Assembly: GCF_046105845.1 (NCBI RefSeq)
Contig: NZ_CP151004.1
DNA: 64,000 nt
From: Escherichia coli
GTDB taxonomy: Bacteria; Pseudomonadota; Gammaproteobacteria; Enterobacterales; Enterobacteriaceae
Reading direction: 5' to 3' (one strand)
Shown here: positions 46,662 through 54,362 of the stretch, piece after piece
Position numbering within the stretch: position 1 is the stretch's first letter
Layout: each line of letters begins with the position of its first letter
Position numbers and translations under genes: made by a program
The notes under the pieces: model-generated
The model's input: the letters and a program-made list of their open reading frames with translations, nothing else
Told to the model about the DNA's origin: nothing
Databases searched by the model: none

Positions 46662-48758
46662 TTAGCGGAAATTGACGCTACGGTCGCTGGTCATGTCATA
46701 CAACTGGAACTTACGCCCAAGTTGCTGACCACCGTCACGCGTCAGCGGCGTCCAGCCAATTGCCGCACGGCTGCGTGTCGGGCCAGACGAGAAGAGATCC
46801 AGCGGTACAGAGACATACACGCCTTTGGTAAAGTCCCCTTCGCCGTACTCCTCTTTCGAAACATTCGTGATCGTGGCATAGCCACCCACCACCACGCCGC
46901 TATCAAAGCGTTTGGCGATCTCCAGCGTGCCGCCTTTATCCCCTGCCAGATACTGCCCGACGCTCGCTTTCACTAACACATCCTGAGCGAAAGATGGCGT
47001 CCAGTATGCGGTCAGATGTCCGGTTTTCACGCTGTAGTCGGTGAATTTCATCATATCTTTTGCGCTACGCCAGTCGCGCTGTTTAACGTAGTTGGCATCC
47101 AGACCAAACGCCCAGTTGCTGTCCAGCGGGCGATACAACACTTCTGCCCCCGCACCGCCAAACATGGTTTCGAGATAACCACCGTAGACCTGACCGTAGA
47201 AGCCGTTGCCCAGATGCTGGAAGTAGTTGGCTTGCAGGTTATTCACATAGACATCGTTCTGCACATACTCGCGCACATGGGTACGAACGCGCGGTAAGTG
47301 CGAGTCCTGCGGCGGGTTGGTGTAGTTAAACTTGTCGTAGTTGTTGGCAAGATTTGCAAACAGGCTGCCGGTGGTGAGCAGATGGTCCGTCAGCCATACA
47401 TCCGCCGTTCCCATCACGCCCAGCTGATACATGTAAAAGTTTTCCGGGCCACCGACCGACTGGTTCAGCACCGGATCGATATGGAAATCAAAGCGTGATT
47501 TGTCGATATACCAGCCCTGCTCGGTGGACTGCGGAACCACTGGCTCGACGCGTTTTTGCGCCAGCGTCGTTTCGTGGCCCAACGGCTCTCCGCCGAGATG
47601 ATTTTTCAGGCTGGCGACATCGGTTTCCGTCGTCACCTGCGGCATGTTAAGGCGATTTTCCGTAATGCGGATCGTTTTGATCCCATCCGGCAGATCGTTC
47701 ATCACGATCCGATTAGCACGGATGATCCCTTCGCGCGAATCACGATATTTCACCTGCTCGCCGGTAACATACAGCGTATCGCCTTTCGCCTGGATCTGCG
47801 GATCGGCCAGTCCGGCGTTGTATTTCAACAGCGTTAACTGATTCGCCACCACCGAGTGCTGCAAAATGGCATCCTGCGGCTGCGGTTGATATTGCGGGCG
47901 GGCGTTATCGTTGTAAGACGGGCGCAGATCGTTAAAGTTGGTGCGCAACGTAACGCCAAACATAAAGGTGTTGCCACGTTCATAGCTAAGGTTAACGTCG
48001 GCCCAATCGGTAACGCGATAAATCGCACCGACGTTAAACTTACTTTTTTGCTCCAGCTTCCCGGCAAAATCCTGCTGATAATTATTGCCTTCATACTCCA
48101 GTTTCAGGCGCAGCGGTTGCCAGGGCGTCTGGTATTCCACGCCGCCAAACAGTGAGGTCGGGCCGTGGAACATCTGGCTACCGTCGATAGATCCCGCCTG
48201 TTTGTAGCTGTTATCGCGATAGCAAAATTTATCACTGGCTGAACAGAGCGGATTTTTCACATTACCGCTGGTGCCCAGATATCCCCAGCCCAGGCCGAGC
48301 GTAAAATCGAACGGCCCCCAGGCTTTGCTGGCAACAAGATATTCCGCATCAAACAGCCCCGTACCGCCGATATCCCGCGCACCAACCGCCACTTGCGGCA
48401 GCCAGTAACTCTCTTCCCACAAACGCAGTTTGAGATCGAAGGCTTTATCTTTATACGTTTGATCACCAGAGAACGCTTCGACGCTGCTGTACTGCCGGGT
48501 GCGCACATCGGTATAGCGCAGCGTTGTTTCCAGCCACGGGAAGAGTTGCACTGAAGCTGAGTAATAACGGTACTGATCGTTATCGCGATAGTTCAAACTC
48601 AACTCCCCTTCCCGCGCCATGCGGGCGGTAGGCGTTTGTAATAATCCTACGCCACCGAAATCCGACTGCGACGGACCAATGGGCGCAGGATATGTTTCGC
48701 CGTAGCAAGCTGTGCTAATGCCCAGCGCCAGTAAGCTAAGCAGATGTCTTTTTTTCAT
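46662..48758 (-). CDS. yjbH: YjbH, outer-membrane component of the yjbEFGH polysaccharide system, 698 aa
   Basis: [20 protein letters not shown] signal peptide; beta-rich 698-aa protein; last gene of yjbEFGH. Confidence 0.9.
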
Positions 48759-49495
48759 TATTGAGGTATCCGCTGCGTCAGAGTCTGAAGAATGTCGGCG
48801 TTAAGGGCATCAGGCGTCTCACTCCAGACGGAGTCCGCGAGGCCAACATAAATAATGCTGCCGGGCATCGGCTCTACGTGACGCTTGTTCCAGTAAGCCA
48901 CCGGCGCTTTTTGCGTGCGTCCGTCCGGGTAAACCACCCACGCGTAGCTGCGATCCGCACCGCTGAGCAGGTTCTGGCCGGAGAGATAGCTCGCCACGTC
49001 GCGACCTGGAGTGAATGGCTGCTTGCCAGGACGGCTGATAAGCCCGAACAACGTGACCGTGGACGGCGGTGGTCCGACCCACAGCGTGTAGTTACCCTGC
49101 AACGGCGGGTTACCGCGTTCGGCAACGCGGACGATATCGGGATCAAGATTGATTTTTTGCCTGCCCGTCACTTTCAACGCCTGAATTTGCTGGCGTAAGG
49201 CGTTAATCGCAGCGGCATCGTCGGCGCTGGAGTCTGCGGCCAGTTCTGCCAGCCGTGTCAGCAACGCCTGCTGCTGACGCAATGCTGCCGCCGTTGCCAG
49301 CTCTTCGCTAATCACCGCACCAGGCCACCAGCTGTTTGCCAGCCGCGGTTGGCCTACCAGATCGATTAAATGCTCTGCGCCCGTTAGCGTCTTGGCCTCA
49401 CTGCTGCCATTGCTGAACACCTTGACGGTTCCTGCTGCGAAGACCGATGACGCTCCCACACTCAAAAGCAACGCGACAATAGTTTGTTTAATCAT
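48758..49495 (-). CDS. yjbG: YjbG periplasmic protein, 245 aa
   Basis: ATG at 49495 gives [20 protein letters not shown] signal peptide; stop overlaps the yjbH start. Confidence 0.85.
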
Positions 49496-50130
49496 TGTTT
49501 TGCCGCCTTGATGAGGGTGGTTTTCACCGGGAAATAATCCGCGCCGAGATACTGTTCCGACTGGCGAATTTGCCCTTCGCTGTCGATCCAATAGCGGTTA
49601 TGCCAGCGCGCCTGGTCGGTGGAGACGTTTTCGTCCAGCACGCGAACCGGAGTTTCATCGCTGCCGACTTTGACGGTATCGGTGCCATCCCATTTGAAGA
49701 CTGAGCGTGCGGTGGCGTAGCGTACCTGCTGGTACTCGGTCCAGCCCATCGTGCGCGTCCAGGTTGCACCATCAACAATTTGTGCGGGTTTAATCAGCGG
49801 GTCGGCGGCAAGGTTATTCACTTCAATCAGGTTGTCGCCGCCAAGCAAAGTCTTCACCAGACGACCATGTTGTGTGACGAGAGTGGCCTGATCCTGAGTG
49901 ACCCATTTTTGTTGTCCGTCTTCAGCGAAGGCCAGCACCACAAACAATTGCGGCCCGCCATTAAGCTGCATGTACTGGCTGGCGTAGGGCATATTTTGAA
50001 TATCATCGTCCGTCAGCTGTACGCCTGGCGTGCCGAACAGACTGTCCCACAGTGAATTGCCCAGCTCTTTAGTCGTGGCTGAACAGGCCTGTAATAGCAG
50101 GCAGATAAGAATGAGTGCAGGTCGCTTCAC
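49492..50130 (-). CDS. yjbF: YjbF lipoprotein, 212 aa (GTG start)
   Basis: GTG at 50130 preceded by GGAGAAG; (M)KRPALILICLLLQACSA lipobox; stop overlaps the yjbG start. Confidence 0.8.
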   Translation of the reverse strand: MKRPALILICLLLQACSATTKELGNSLWDSLFGTPGVQLTDDDIQNMPYASQYMQLNGGPQLFVVLAFAEDGQQKWVTQDQATLVTQHGRLVKTLLGGDNLIEVNNLAADPLIKPAQIVDGATWTRTMGWTEYQQVRYATARSVFKWDGTDTVKVGSDETPVRVLDENVSTDQARWHNRYWIDSEGQIRQSEQYLGADYFPVKTTLIKAAKQ

Positions 50131-50242
50131 GACTCTTCTCCAGAGGGGCAGAATAACCACACCGGAGTGTGGTTATGGTAAATCCCTTCATATTTCAAGC
50201 CACAGATGCAATGACCCGAATTATTTTGGGATACATACTTTA

Positions 50243-50485
50243 TTACTGGGTACTGGTGGTCGTGGTTGTTGTGGTCCCGGTATTAGAACCATCACCGCCA
50301 CCGGTTGCCGCGAGCGCGACACCCACCGCCGAGCTTACGGTGCTGACGCTGGTCGCGGAGGAACTCCCCGCCGAAACCGACGTTGCTGCCGACCCTGCCG
50401 CTTCGCCCACCTGTACAGGTGCAGCCCACGCAGAAGTCGCCGCAAGCGCAGATATGGCAAAAATGCCATACAGAACTTTTTTCAT
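50243..50485 (-). CDS. yjbE: YjbE, small secreted low-complexity Ser/Thr/Gly/Ala-rich protein, 80 aa
   Basis: [21 protein letters not shown] signal peptide, then a low-complexity body ending [10 protein letters not shown]. Confidence 0.85.
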
Positions 50486-50794
50486 AACAATTTCCCTTCA
50501 TTGAATGAATGGAGATTTACCCAAAAACATTTCGGGCGGGATCGAGTATACACAACTAAAGCATGCGAATTACGGTGTGGGGAATTAGCGATGGGGTTTT
50601 AGGATAATTGGAATGAATATCAAATATAAGTTTCAACTTATATATAAATAAGATTAAAAATCAAAAAGTTAAAATAGAATCAAAAATAATCAACCTACGT
50701 ATTTTCCGAAATCAATCACGATTAAAAATTTATTTTAGGATTAAACTCACAGCATGATTTCCGTTAAATCACAGACAAGGGGATTTATCTGATA

Positions 50795-50827
50795 AAAAAT
50801 GCCGACATAACGTCGGCATTTTTATTA
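50795..50827. terminator. Bidirectional intrinsic terminator downstream of pgi
   Basis: aaaaaatgccgac-ataa-cgtcggcatttttatt. Confidence 0.85.
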
Positions 50828-50838
50828 AGGTTATTTAA

Positions 50839-52488
50839 TTAACCGCGCCACGCTTTATAGCGGTTAATCAGACCATTGGTCGAGCTATCGTGGCTGCTGA
50901 TTTCTTTATCATCTTTCAGCTCTGGCAGAATACGGTTCGCCAGTTGTTTACCCAGCTCCACGCCCCACTGGTCGAAGGTGAAGATGTTCAGAATCACGCC
51001 CTGAGTAAAGATTTTGTGCTCATACAGCGCAATCAACGCACCCAGGCTGAACGGAGTGATTTCGCGCAGCAGGATGGAGTTGGTCGGACGGTTACCTTCG
51101 AACACTTTGAACGGCACCACGTAGTCAAGCGTTGCCGGATCTTTACCCTGATCACGATATTCCTGCTCAACCACTTCGCGGGATTTACCAAACGCCAGCG
51201 CTTCGGTCTGAGCAAAGAAGTTAGACAGCAGTTTCTGGTGATGATCAGAGAGTGGGTTATGGGTGATAGCCGGGGCGATGAAATCGCACGGTACCATTTT
51301 GGTTCCCTGGTGGATCAGCTGGTAGAACGCGTGCTGACCGTTTGTGCCTGGTTCACCCCAGATAATCGGGCCAGTCTGGTAATCCACAACGTTACCGTTA
51401 CGGTCAACATACTTACCGTTGGACTCCATATTGCCCTGCTGGAAGTACGCCGCGAAACGGTGCATATACTGGTCATACGGCAGAATCGCTTCAGTTTCCG
51501 CACCAAAGAAATTGTTGTACCAGATGCCAATCAGCGCCAGCAGGACAGGCAGGTTTTTCTCGGCAGGCGTGGTGGAGAAATGCTTGTCCATCGCGTGTGC
51601 GCCAGAAAGCAGTTCAACAAAATTATCAAAGCCGATGGAGAGAACAATCGACAAGCCAATCGCTGACCACAAAGAGTAACGGCCGCCAACCCAGTCCCAG
51701 AACTCGAACATGTTGGCAGTATCAATACCAAACTCGCCAACGGCTTTGGCATTGGTTGAGAGCGCCGCAAAGTGTTTTGCAACGTGTTTTTCATCACCTG
51801 CCGCTTTCAGGAACCAGTCACGCGCGCTATGGGCGTTGGTCATAGTTTCCTGAGTGGTGAAGGTTTTAGAGGCTACCAGGAACAGCGTGGTTTCCGGGTT
51901 TACTTTTTTCAGCACTTCCGCGATGTGAGTCCCATCGACGTTAGAAACAAAGTGCATGTTCAGGTGATTTTTGTACGGACGCAGTGCTTCGGTCACCATG
52001 TACGGGCCGAGGTCAGAACCACCGATCCCGATGTTCACTACGTCAGTGATTGCTTTGCCGGTATAACCCTTCCACTCACCGGAAATAATCGCTTCCGAGA
52101 AGGTTTTCATCTTCTCCAGCACCGCGTTGACTTCTGGCATTACGTCTTTGCCATCAACCAGAATCGGGGTATTGCTACGGTTACGCAGCGCTACGTGCAG
52201 CACGGCGCGGTTTTCAGTGCGGTTGATCTTCTCGCCAGAGAACATCGACTTAATCGCGCCCGCCAGATCGCACTCTTTCGCCAGATCCTGTAATTTCGCC
52301 AGCGTCTCTTCAGTGATGCGGTTTTTGGAGTAATCCACCAGCATCTGATCGTCGAAGGTTGCAGAGAACTTAGAAAAACGATCGCCGTCTTTAGCAAAAA
52401 GATCGGCGATCGTAACGTCTTTCATTTCATCGAAGTGTTTCTGTAGTGCCTGCCAGGCAGCGGTCTGCGTTGGATTGATGTTTTTCAT
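50839..52488 (-). CDS. pgi: Glucose-6-phosphate isomerase, 549 aa
   Basis: ATG at 52488 gives [45 protein letters not shown]... Confidence 0.98.
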
Positions 52489-52699
52489 TAGCAATACTCT
52501 TCTGATTTTGAGAATTGTGACTTTGGAAGATTGTAGCGCCAGTCACAGAAAAATGTGATGGTTTTAGTGCCGTTAGCGTAATGTTGAGTGTAAACCCTTA
52601 GCGCAGTGAAGCATTTATTAGCTGAACTACTGACCGCCAGGAGTGGATGAAAAATCCGCATGACCCCATCGTTGACAACCGCCCCGCTCACCCTTTATT

Positions 52700-53012
52700 T
52701 ATAAATGTACTACCTGCGCTAGCGCAGGCCAGAAGAGGCGCGTTGCCCAAGTAACGGTGTTGGAGGAGCCAGTCCTGTGATAACACCTGAGGGGGTGCAT
52801 CGCCGAGGTGATTGAACGGCTGGCCACGTTCATCATCGGCTACAGGGGCTGAATCCCCTGGGTTGTCACCAGAAGCGTTCGCAGTCGGGCGTTTCGCAAG
52901 TGGTGGAGCACTTCTGGGTGAAAATAGTAGCGAAGTATCGCTCTGCGCCCACCCGTCTTCCGCTCTTCCCTTGTGCCAAGGCTGAAAATGGATCCCCTGA
53001 CACGAGGTAGTT
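52700..53012 (+). promoter_or_regulatory. lysC leader containing the lysine riboswitch (L-box)
   Basis: Long structured 5' leader before lysC with L-box-like segments (agaggcgc, ggaggagcc, gggggtgcatcgccgaggtga); antisense ORFs here are artefacts. Confidence 0.85.
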
Positions 53013-54362
53013 ATGTCTGAAATTGTTGTCTCCAAATTTGGCGGTACCAGCGTAGCTGATTTTGACGCCATGAACCGCAGCGCTGATATTGTGCTTTCTG
53101 ATGCCAACGTACGTTTAGTTGTCCTCTCGGCTTCTGCTGGTATCACTAATCTGCTGGTCGCTTTAGCTGAAGGACTGGAACCTGGCGAGCGATTCGAAAA
53201 ACTCGACGCTATTCGCAACATCCAGTTTGCCATTCTGGAACGTCTGCGTTACCCGAACGTTATCCGTGAAGAGATTGAACGTCTGCTGGAGAACATTACT
53301 GTTCTGGCAGAAGCGGCGGCGCTGGCAACGTCTCCGGCGCTGACAGATGAACTGGTCAGCCACGGCGAGCTGATGTCGACCCTGCTGTTTGTCGAAATCC
53401 TGCGCGAACGCGATGTTCAGGCACAGTGGTTTGATGTACGTAAAGTGATGCGTACCAACGACCGATTTGGTCGTGCAGAGCCAGATGTAGCCGCGCTGGC
53501 GGAACTGGCCGCGCTGCAGCTGCTCCCACGCCTCAATGAAGGCTTAGTGATCACCCAGGGATTTATCGGTAGCGAAAATAAAGGTCGGACAACGACGCTT
53601 GGTCGTGGAGGCAGCGATTATACGGCAGCCTTGCTGGCGGAGGCTTTACACGCATCTCGTGTTGATATCTGGACCGACGTCCCGGGCATCTACACCACCG
53701 ATCCACGCGTGGTTTCCGCAGCAAAACGCATTGATGAAATCGCGTTTGCCGAAGCGGCAGAGATGGCAACTTTTGGTGCAAAAGTACTGCATCCGGCAAC
53801 GTTGCTACCCGCAGTACGCAGCGATATCCCGGTCTTTGTCGGCTCCAGTAAAGACCCACGCGCAGGTGGTACGCTGGTGTGCAATAAAACTGAAAATCCG
53901 CCGCTATTCCGCGCGCTGGCGCTTCGTCGCAATCAGACTCTGCTCACTTTGCACAGCCTGAATATGCTGCATTCTCGCGGTTTCCTCGCGGAAGTTTTCG
54001 GCATCCTCGCGCGGCATAATATTTCGGTAGACTTAATCACCACGTCAGAAGTGAGCGTGGCATTAACCCTTGATACCACCGGTTCAACCTCCACTGGCGA
54101 TACCTTGCTGACGCAATCTCTGCTGATGGAGCTGTCTGCACTATGCCGGGTAGAAGTGGAGGAAGGTCTGGCGCTGGTCGCGTTGATTGGCAATGACCTG
54201 TCAAAAGCCTGCGGCGTTGGCAAAGAGGTATTCGGCGTACTGGAACCGTTCAACATTCGCATGATTTGTTACGGCGCATCCAGCCATAACCTGTGCTTCC
54301 TGGTGCCCGGCGAAGATGCCGAGCAGGTGGTGCAAAAACTGCATTTTAATTTGTTTGAGTAA
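53013..54362 (+). CDS. lysC: Lysine-sensitive aspartokinase III, 449 aa
   Basis: MSEIVVSKFGGTSVADFDAMNRSADIVLSDANVRLVVLSASAGITN... Confidence 0.98.
   Translation: MSEIVVSKFGGTSVADFDAMNRSADIVLSDANVRLVVLSASAGITNLLVALAEGLEPGERFEKLDAIRNIQFAILERLRYPNVIREEIERLLENITVLAEAAALATSPALTDELVSHGELMSTLLFVEILRERDVQAQWFDVRKVMRTNDRFGRAEPDVAALAELAALQLLPRLNEGLVITQGFIGSENKGRTTTLGRGGSDYTAALLAEALHASRVDIWTDVPGIYTTDPRVVSAAKRIDEIAFAEAAEMATFGAKVLHPATLLPAVRSDIPVFVGSSKDPRAGGTLVCNKTENPPLFRALALRRNQTLLTLHSLNMLHSRGFLAEVFGILARHNISVDLITTSEVSVALTLDTTGSTSTGDTLLTQSLLMELSALCRVEVEEGLALVALIGNDLSKACGVGKEVFGVLEPFNIRMICYGASSHNLCFLVPGEDAEQVVQKLHFNLFE

Follow-up and report, generated by a model that had tools for sequence, protein, structure and literature searches.

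How is yjbE, the small first gene of an envelope-stress operon, switched on, and is its low-complexity product more than secreted filler? Both questions are raised by a 64,000-nucleotide stretch of Escherichia coli chromosome (the window hereafter), in which yjbE follows pgi across an AT-rich gap. An 801-bp query taken around yjbE matched 5425 of 5426 complete E. coli genomes with 90-99.5% identity, the matches being annotated as pgi, yjbE and yjbF, and the yjbE locus of the window itself has 94-99.5% DNA identity to E. coli genomes. The segment singled out in the initial annotation, 50243-50838, consists precisely of yjbE and the gap; these and the neighbouring genes are arranged as follows.

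50839-52494, minus strand: pgi (Pfam)
50486-50838: the gap between pgi and yjbE, 353 bp
50243-50485, minus strand: yjbE coding sequence, 80 codons plus stop, ATG start (ORF list; Pfam PF11106)
49492-50130, minus strand: yjbF (Pfam YjbF)
48758-49495, minus strand: yjbG (Pfam GfcC N and C domains)
46662-48758, minus strand: yjbH (Pfam YjbH)

The ORF at 50243-50485 is yjbE, with which the yjbEFGH envelope-stress operon of E. coli begins, and the same placement in the initial annotation is borne out by the PF11106 match together with the YjbF, GfcC and YjbH matches downstream. The Pfam YjbE profile aligned with the 80-aa ORF over its full length (residues 1-79 on profile positions 1-79 of 79) at 113.6 bits for a cut-off of 27.9 (E=5e-33), yjbFGH spans 46662..50130 on the minus strand, and the order yjbE-F-G-H is kept in 72 loci. 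Searches of YjbE against NCBIfam and PDB sequences gave no matches, and a homolog search with the protein returned mainly partial or frameshifted singletons, which were uninformative. The gene, the operon and the Rcs control of yjbEFGH are already known in E. coli, and the K-12 operon is reportedly the subject of Ferrieres et al. 2007 and Ionescu & Belkin 2009.

In published work, RcsB and RcsA jointly turn the operon on in response to envelope or osmotic stress. Activation of yjbEFGH by RcsA-RcsB has been reported with reference to Ferrieres 2007 (PMC5461412, PMC5651002), colicin M induces yjbE strongly, by 5.74 log2 units (PMC3599342), and in 1035 transcriptomes the expression of yjbE varies together with that of rcsA, wza and wca genes (PMC13401006). 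The Rcs-type control proposed in the initial annotation agrees with these reports and with conserved half-site boxes in the gap, set out below; a literature search found no mention of a yjbE promoter or of a mapped Rcs site. The RcsAB consensus, reportedly that of Wehland and Bernhard in 2000, is TaAGaatatTCctA. Looking for an RcsAB box in 50486-50838 had been suggested as a check, and with this strict consensus the outcome was negative, no site being found within 3 mismatches. A consensus match at 26502, upstream of zur, was dismissed; consensus matches elsewhere in the window are at chance level. Three boxes with the RcsB half-site TCCTAAAA emerged only from phylogenetic footprinting; they are retained throughout an alignment of 66 distinct orthologous Enterobacteriaceae pgi-yjbE gaps (334-510 bp, in conserved synteny) across which conservation is patchy. 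From pgi towards yjbE, the gap can be read as follows.

50795..50823: bidirectional intrinsic terminator AAAAATGCCGAC-N5-GTCGGCATTTTT, ending pgi on the minus strand
50736..50749, minus strand: box A, distal candidate of RcsAB type, TGAGTTTAATCCTA, then AAAT
50696..50709, plus strand: box B, inverted and weaker candidate of RcsB type, TACGTATTTTCCGA, then AAT
50614..50695: AT-rich spacer between boxes B and C, ~18% GC, with 3 of the 5 ATCAA copies
50600..50613, minus strand: box C, proximal candidate of RcsB type, TTCCAATTATCCTA (ending in ATTATCCTA), then AAA
50545..50550, minus strand: putative -10 hexamer TATACT, in the invariant block GTTGTGTATACTCGA (50556-50542)
50486..50538, minus strand: predicted 5'UTR of ~52 nt, 92-97% column conservation in 66 orthologs
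50537-50519, minus strand: predicted 5'-terminal hairpin of the UTR (RNAalifold)
50513-50493, minus strand: predicted second UTR hairpin, pairing the Shine-Dalgarno sequence GAAGGGA (50499-50493)

Box A is the sole match in the 64 kb to T-N-R-G-N5-T-C-Y-N-A-A-A, and each of the 66 orthologs has one 14-mer of this type. Its conserved columns (T1, A3, G4, T10, C11 and A14) are the capital letters of TaAGaatatTCctA, positions 12-13 vary, and the box differs from the full consensus at 4 of 14 positions. It contains TCCTAAAAT, given in a preprint as the canonical RcsB half-site, with yjbE among the motif candidates. The relaxed pattern T-N-R-G-N5-T-C-N-N-A also finds, in MG1655, TAAGGATTATCCGAAAA upstream of rcsA and the TAAGAATATCGCA-like TAAGAAATATCGCA upstream of wza. 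The RcsB half-site TCCTAAAA occurs only twice in the 64 kb, both times in the gap and on the yjbE strand, one copy (50597-50604) belonging to box C. When the RcsB homodimer box TN(G/A)GAN4TC(T/C)NA (PMC7913699) was tested, no exact match was present, box A having T for A at position 5 and boxes B and C missing the left half; because of these misses, a heterodimer site fits better than a homodimer site.

Regarding the spacing of the boxes, box B, which resembles the rcsA box TAAGGATTATCCGAAAA and reads CGTAT(A/T)(A/T)TCC(T/G)AAAAT in orthologs (alignment columns 15-35), keeps a constant 48-bp distance to box A in 44 of the 66 sequences. The box C core, TC[CT][TG]AAA, is retained in essentially all orthologs; its distance to TATACT is 54 bp in 50 of 66 sequences and 41-43 bp in nine, mainly loci of the C. 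freundii complex with a 12-bp deletion. Box A and the -10 element are separated by 185-187, 196-199 or 209-211 bp, and the indels behind these three classes measure ~11, 11, 12, 23-24 and 24 bp, plus one of 14 bp. It is suggestive that the spacer indels appear to keep the helical face, in what are few independent events. With box C centred at ~-68 from the predicted start, and A and B as an inverted pair at ~-205 and ~-165, we read all three as candidate RcsB-type sites. The distance of the boxes at ~-165 and ~-205 from the promoter was counted against the box model.

The putative promoter lies within the most invariant part of the alignment: the core TGTATACT is identical in 66 of 66 distinct orthologous sequences, and just upstream of it TTATG replaces TTGTG in three Atlantibacter-type loci. 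At the -35 position, GTAATT is a poor match. A simple sigma-70 scan called no yjbE promoter, which may be put down to this weak -35, as expected of an activator-dependent promoter, and we read the TATACT block as the likely site of such a promoter. A simple promoter and terminator scan of 50100-51000 called nothing, not even the clear terminator of pgi, and was not relied on. The 5' end of the yjbE transcript was placed from the -10 element. RNAalifold predicted both hairpins of the resulting UTR in 38 orthologs, with UA/CG/UG alternations in the first; the second takes up a 4-nt insertion in its loop in loci of two genera (L045 and L047). The fold of the window's 5'UTR (-13.8 kcal/mol, z = -1.7) is weak by itself.

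The GC content of the gap is 30.6%, while that of the window is 50.4%. Within the gap, GC drops to 18-19% in sliding windows of 100 bp, and no other 100 bp of the 64 kb is as AT-rich as 50598-50697 (17% GC); only 0.07% of such windows are at or below 19%. The initial annotation had described a 350-bp, extremely AT-rich leader with repeated ATCAA and AAAAT motifs. The length and the AT-richness stood, as did the ATCAA repeats (5 copies on the plus strand vs 0.9 expected, p ~0.0015), whereas AAAAT is not significantly enriched (5 copies, p ~0.09) and the term leader does not apply to a predicted 5'UTR of only ~52 nt with ~42% GC. Most of the 353 bp would be regulatory DNA and the pgi terminator, not transcribed leader.

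The AT-rich spacer holds a 9+2+9 palindrome (50624-50643) that is E. coli-specific, and AA/TT periodicity of 10-11 bp, a sign of intrinsic curvature, was not seen in its core. The sequence of the spacer is unconserved (column identity 0.33-0.6), yet its GC content stays low, at 17-33%, in 65 orthologs. This persistence, in a gap that includes the most AT-rich DNA of the window (17-19% GC), would be understandable if the gap were mainly silenced by H-NS and Rcs worked only by counter-silencing. The high-affinity nucleation motif of H-NS, TCGATAAATT, has no match in the gap within 2 mismatches, however, a literature search gave no report of H-NS binding or of hns-dependent yjbE expression, and the phased conserved boxes favour specific activation. 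The argument for the H-NS control of yjbE, which the initial annotation had also proposed, is one of AT-richness, and we regard silencing as the main mode of control as somewhat unlikely. Activation by Rcs through the candidate boxes is the reading retained below.

The second question concerns the protein. YjbE had been described as an ~80-aa signal-peptide protein, nearly all Ala, Ser, Thr, Gly and Val and of a mucin-type or disordered nature. The description holds for size and composition, and the N-terminus reads as a signal peptide: A+S+T+G+V make up 78.8% of the 80 residues, and MKK and a hydrophobic core are followed by A-W-A at -3..-1, an arrangement of Sec type, read from the sequence and kept in orthologs.

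50423-50485, minus strand: predicted YjbE signal peptide, ~codons 1-21, of Sec-type layout
from ~Ala22-Pro23, minus strand: predicted mature YjbE peptide

YjbE is thus predicted to be a Sec-exported peptide with a signal peptidase I-type site. A scripted cut behind residue 22 (the A-W-A rule puts cleavage one residue earlier) leaves a 58-aa part in which A+S+T+G+V reach 87.9%, K, R, H and aromatic residues are absent, and there is one D and one E. The mature peptide (~58-59 aa) can be divided into a low-complexity spacer, a short V/A/L stretch, a GGGDGSNTG turn and a Thr7 tail. From its low complexity, and from two AlphaFold fusions in which no confident structure was obtained for it, YjbE is predicted to be disordered, in line with the initial annotation. 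The YjbH-linker-YjbE fusion has an overall pLDDT of 82.8, with YjbH well folded, and the YjbF-YjbG-YjbE fusion a pLDDT of 72.7, with YjbF and YjbG well folded; in both, YjbE is at pLDDT 21-33 and undocked, with no helix in its apolar run. As these are monomer models with artificial linkers and near-invariant YjbE rows, the negative docking result is a weak one, and to this weak degree the modelling gives no support to a physical partnership of YjbE with YjbF, YjbG or YjbH.

Disorder does not mean lack of constraint. In a YjbF scan of one genome per species, which provided 80 Enterobacteriaceae loci, the yjbE ORF is kept in 78, and invariant YjbE residues are encoded by 3-5 differing synonymous codons. 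Compared with the proteins of the window, orthologs of mature YjbE are on average 91% identical, those of YjbF 80%, of YjbG 67% and of YjbH 87.5%; the Pgi C-terminus reaches 94.7%. The dN/dS ratio (Nei-Gojobori) is 0.068 for mature YjbE and 0.022 for its last 28 aa, vs 0.11 for YjbF, 0.14 for YjbG and 0.06 for YjbH. The yjbE ORF is, to judge from these comparisons, under strong purifying selection as a protein. The low dN/dS and the synonymous variation argue against a freely drifting mucin-like filler, so that of the earlier description the low complexity and the absence of a predicted fold remain and drifting filler becomes unlikely. They also indicate, as far as the sequence can tell, that the ORF is translated, a point on which the initial annotation had let its proposal depend. 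A protein that looks like disordered filler is hence among the most constrained products of yjbEFGH.

Similar first genes are found elsewhere. GfcA (YmcD) is encoded by the first gene of the paralogous group 4 capsule operon, gfcABCDE-etp-etk, where it precedes the B, C and D genes just as yjbE precedes their paralogs, and it has a like layout: a signal peptide, an S/T/A/G-rich stretch, a hydrophobic V/A stretch, a GDG(G)S..NT turn and a Thr-rich end (...STTR). Homology between GfcA and YjbE was not detectable (BLAST E=65; no Pfam match), and in a search of GfcA and the analogues against NCBIfam only, the sole matches were far under cut-off. An exhaustive YjbH search returned 2659 relatives. 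In three distant operons, with YjbH 45-50% identical, the first gene encodes a small protein of YjbE layout (signal peptide, low-complexity part, hydrophobic A/V/G stretch, G/D/N/S turn, Thr-rich tail); in two others there is no YjbE-like gene, and a wza-like gene stands directly before the yjbF homolog.

Could YjbE be anchored in the inner membrane, as GfcA is annotated, and not be a soluble secreted peptide? The RefSeq name of GfcA is 'threonine-rich inner membrane protein', and the A/V/G stretches of GfcA and of the analogues of loci L087 and L088 are 18-38 residues long, averaging 1.85-2.2 on the Kyte-Doolittle scale over 19 aa. The apolar stretch of GfcA is long enough for a membrane span but that of YjbE is not: its apolar run has 12 residues, its top 19-aa window reaches 1.24, under the usual threshold of ~1.6, and, as mentioned above, AlphaFold gives no helix there. 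An anchored YjbE is accordingly an unlikely reading, and we continue with a soluble exported peptide.

A further alternative concerns the distal half of the gap, in which boxes A and B are located within an Rfam match.

50682..50830, plus strand: Rfam RF02053 STnc430 match, 89.2 bits for a gathering score of 47

STnc430, a predicted sRNA antisense to the DNA upstream of yjbE, has the same pgi/yjbE location in Salmonella LT2, and the conserved blocks of the distal half could be read as this sRNA, divergent from yjbE and ending at the shared terminator, instead of as Rcs sites. The score is well over the gathering score, a TAAAAT hexamer stands 7 nt before 50682, and the terminator, a perfect 12-bp inverted repeat, has T-runs on both strands, the plus strand included. 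It folds at -16.8 and -18.6 kcal/mol on the two strands (z = -6.4 and -6.8) and shows compensatory GC<->AU changes among orthologs. In the source study, however, STnc430 was put forward as a candidate on computational grounds, and its entry gives 0 cDNA reads for each of the two libraries and 'np' in place of a Northern blot; across 48 orthologs, covariation in RNAalifold backs only the terminator stem, and the putative sRNA promoter region is unconserved. The long stem of STnc430 was rejected as an RNA element: it is two inverted TCC(T/G)AAAA boxes paired with each other, and changes in its arms are uncompensated. We consider the sRNA very unlikely, and the RF02053 match probably arises from conserved regulatory DNA together with a bidirectional terminator, which calls for caution with Rfam STnc430 matches in the pgi-yjbE gap. 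Of note, the position of boxes A and B inside the match was also counted against the box model, their conservation being possibly in part RNA-level.

Beyond the yjbE stop codon, a further element is conserved before yjbF.

50153..50176, minus strand: stem-loop AUAACCACAC-UCCG-GUGUGGUUAU followed by UCUG, between yjbE and yjbF

In most genera this stem-loop has a UUCG loop and a UUUUG tail, in the form TAACCACAC-TTCG-GTGTGGTTA then TTTT(G). It is present in 68 of 68 distinct yjbE-yjbF spacers, regardless of REP-like or other insertions around it, and that of the window folds at -19.4 kcal/mol (z = -3.9). We infer that it terminates part of the transcription or stabilises the 3' end, which would leave more message of yjbE than of yjbFGH. 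An expression component of the rcsA and wca genes includes yjbE alone from the operon, not yjbFGH (PMC13401006), which fits attenuation at the stem-loop; in a colicin M array, yjbE and yjbF were similarly induced, in itself no demonstration of attenuation (PMC3599342). That yjbE might be a regulatory leader ORF in the style of the thr operon, tuning yjbFGH to Thr-tRNA charging by means of an unimportant peptide, is extremely improbable despite its run of 7 Thr codons no more than 10 codons from the stop and a U-tailed hairpin, also conserved, which lies ~20 nt downstream in most genera and ~65 nt downstream in E. coli, since the whole mature peptide including its non-Thr residues is near-invariant (dN/dS 0.02-0.07), the predicted signal peptide is retained, GfcA and the distant analogues share the protein layout and not the codon pattern, and folds of the spacer show no alternative antiterminator pairing.

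The best overall explanation, which we hold to be quite probable, is an Rcs-activated yjbE with the promoter, boxes, UTR, export and stem-loop anatomy deduced here. Transcription would start ~52 nt upstream of the yjbE ATG, at an activator-dependent promoter with TATACT as -10 and a poor -35, and would be driven by three TCCTAAAA half-site boxes, one at ~-68 and an inverted pair at ~-165/~-205. The AT-rich spacer between the proximal box and the distal pair is most likely bendable or nucleoid-protein-bound DNA that keeps the promoter silent until Rcs becomes active. In the message, the short 5'UTR fold would leave the ribosome-binding site partly paired. The pre-protein would be exported by Sec and cut after A-W-A, and the uncharged, hydroxyl-rich mature YjbE would act in the envelope with YjbF (a lipoprotein), YjbG (periplasmic) and YjbH (a double outer-membrane barrel). 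Because of the gene order, the selection and the layout common to GfcA and the analogues, YjbE may be a small abundant partner or cargo of YjbF, YjbG and YjbH, and the stem-loop past the yjbE stop would let its message exceed that of yjbFGH. The analysis thereby adds a mutational map to the known operon, comprising the three boxes, the -10 element, the ribosome-binding-site hairpin and the stem-loop after yjbE.

A more far-reaching interpretation, decidedly unlikely in our estimate, would place YjbE, GfcA and the distant small first genes in one class of exported peptides, whose module of hydrophobic stretch, turn and Thr tail would define it and which would serve as cargo, primer or surface anchor of the machine formed by lipoprotein, periplasmic protein and double barrel; such a peptide may, for example, carry the uncharacterised 'Yjb polysaccharide' in protein-linked form. 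Both the very low tail dN/dS and a stem-loop raising the dose of yjbE would fit this class. GfcA and YjbE are regarded as uncharacterised, and the Ser/Thr-rich GfcA has been speculated to be modified and exported through GfcD, O-glycosylation being proposed, as speculation, for GfcA only (PMC8592465). If the class were real, the substrate of the machine would be a peptide or glycopeptide and not a free glycan. The unexpectedly strong constraint on YjbE, and on its C-terminal module in particular, makes YjbE and GfcA a sensible entry to the function of the YjbFGH and GfcBCD outer-membrane apparatus.

Finally, the locus can be set beside known systems. Strains of K-12 type carry a REP block of ~147 bp directly after pgi that the strain of the window is without; beyond this missing block, the locus equals the K-12 yjbEFGH locus, in the order pgi-yjbE-yjbF-yjbG-yjbH. 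With the RcsAB boxes of rcsA and wza (cps), box A shares all six strongly conserved positions, and AAA(A) follows it as it follows the rcsA box; unlike them, the yjbE gap has three candidate boxes, of which two lie ~165-205 bp upstream of the predicted start. For the operon as a whole, the papA/pap pilus operon offers an analogy: there too, a small exported first product is followed by a conserved hairpin and then by assembly and export genes. PapA is a structural subunit, and it is by gene layout only that YjbE is likened to it.

The 353-bp gap between yjbE and pgi (50486-50838) and the yjbE-yjbF spacer contain the following elements, and the window carries two RNAs identified by Rfam matches outside them:

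50682-50830, + strand: match to Rfam RF02053 (STnc430), with a score exceeding the gathering score
50624-50643: perfect 9+2+9 palindrome, ATATAAGTT-TC-AACTTATAT, within the AT-rich core of the gap
~50779-50789: palindrome TTATC-N-GATAA, adjoining the pgi terminator
50153-50176, - strand: stem-loop of the general form AACCACAC-UUCG-GUGUGGUU with a U-rich tail, in the yjbE-yjbF spacer
52725-52921, + strand: lysine riboswitch (Rfam, 99.5 bits), upstream of lysC (53013-54362)
8502-8642, + strand: Hfq-binding sRNA sraL (RyjA; Rfam, 153 bits), the match spanning its full length

Regarding STnc430, the family originated as a computational sRNA candidate that was left unvalidated, with 0 reads and no Northern in its source study, and among 48 orthologs covariation across the region is limited to the terminator. 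RF02053 may describe conserved promoter DNA and not an RNA. Within the same gap, the TTATC-N-GATAA palindrome is retained in most orthologous gaps, as ATTATC[CT][GT]ATAAAAAA. The 9+2+9 palindrome is present in E. coli and absent from E. whittamii and other genera; it may serve as a binding site for a protein, specific to the species.

Downstream of yjbE, the stem-loop is universally conserved in the window and in the orthologous yjb loci (L002-L081), and the spacer surrounding it is a frequent target of small insertions. These add ~50 nt in Escherichia and 125 nt in one locus (L030); in Citrobacter and Enterobacter they are REP-like (GCCGGGTAAGCG...CACCCGGCA). An IS1 insertion that arose at this same spot during laboratory evolution has also been reported (PMC8117528).

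The yjbE gene itself is GC-rich and of low complexity, and many singleton "YjbE" entries in public databases (P0001-P0052) are frameshifted chimeras of its three reading frames, probably reflecting assembly or sequencing errors. Among distant YjbH homologs, many (P0175-P0322) are 940-1400 aa long because the YjbH domain is preceded by ~260-350 additional N-terminal residues; this extension may have come from fusion to the YjbG/GfcC-like protein encoded upstream. Some of the distant operons have a Wza-like (Poly_export/SLBB) gene immediately 5' of the yjbF homolog (L084 2-331, L086 74-1174) and no gene for a YjbE-like peptide, so the small peptide is not found universally.

Finally, in K-12-type strains a REP/BIME block of ~147 bp sits directly 3' of the pgi stop codon (L001 363-510), and the strain studied here has none at 50839; this difference is why many E. 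coli genomes matched in two pieces.
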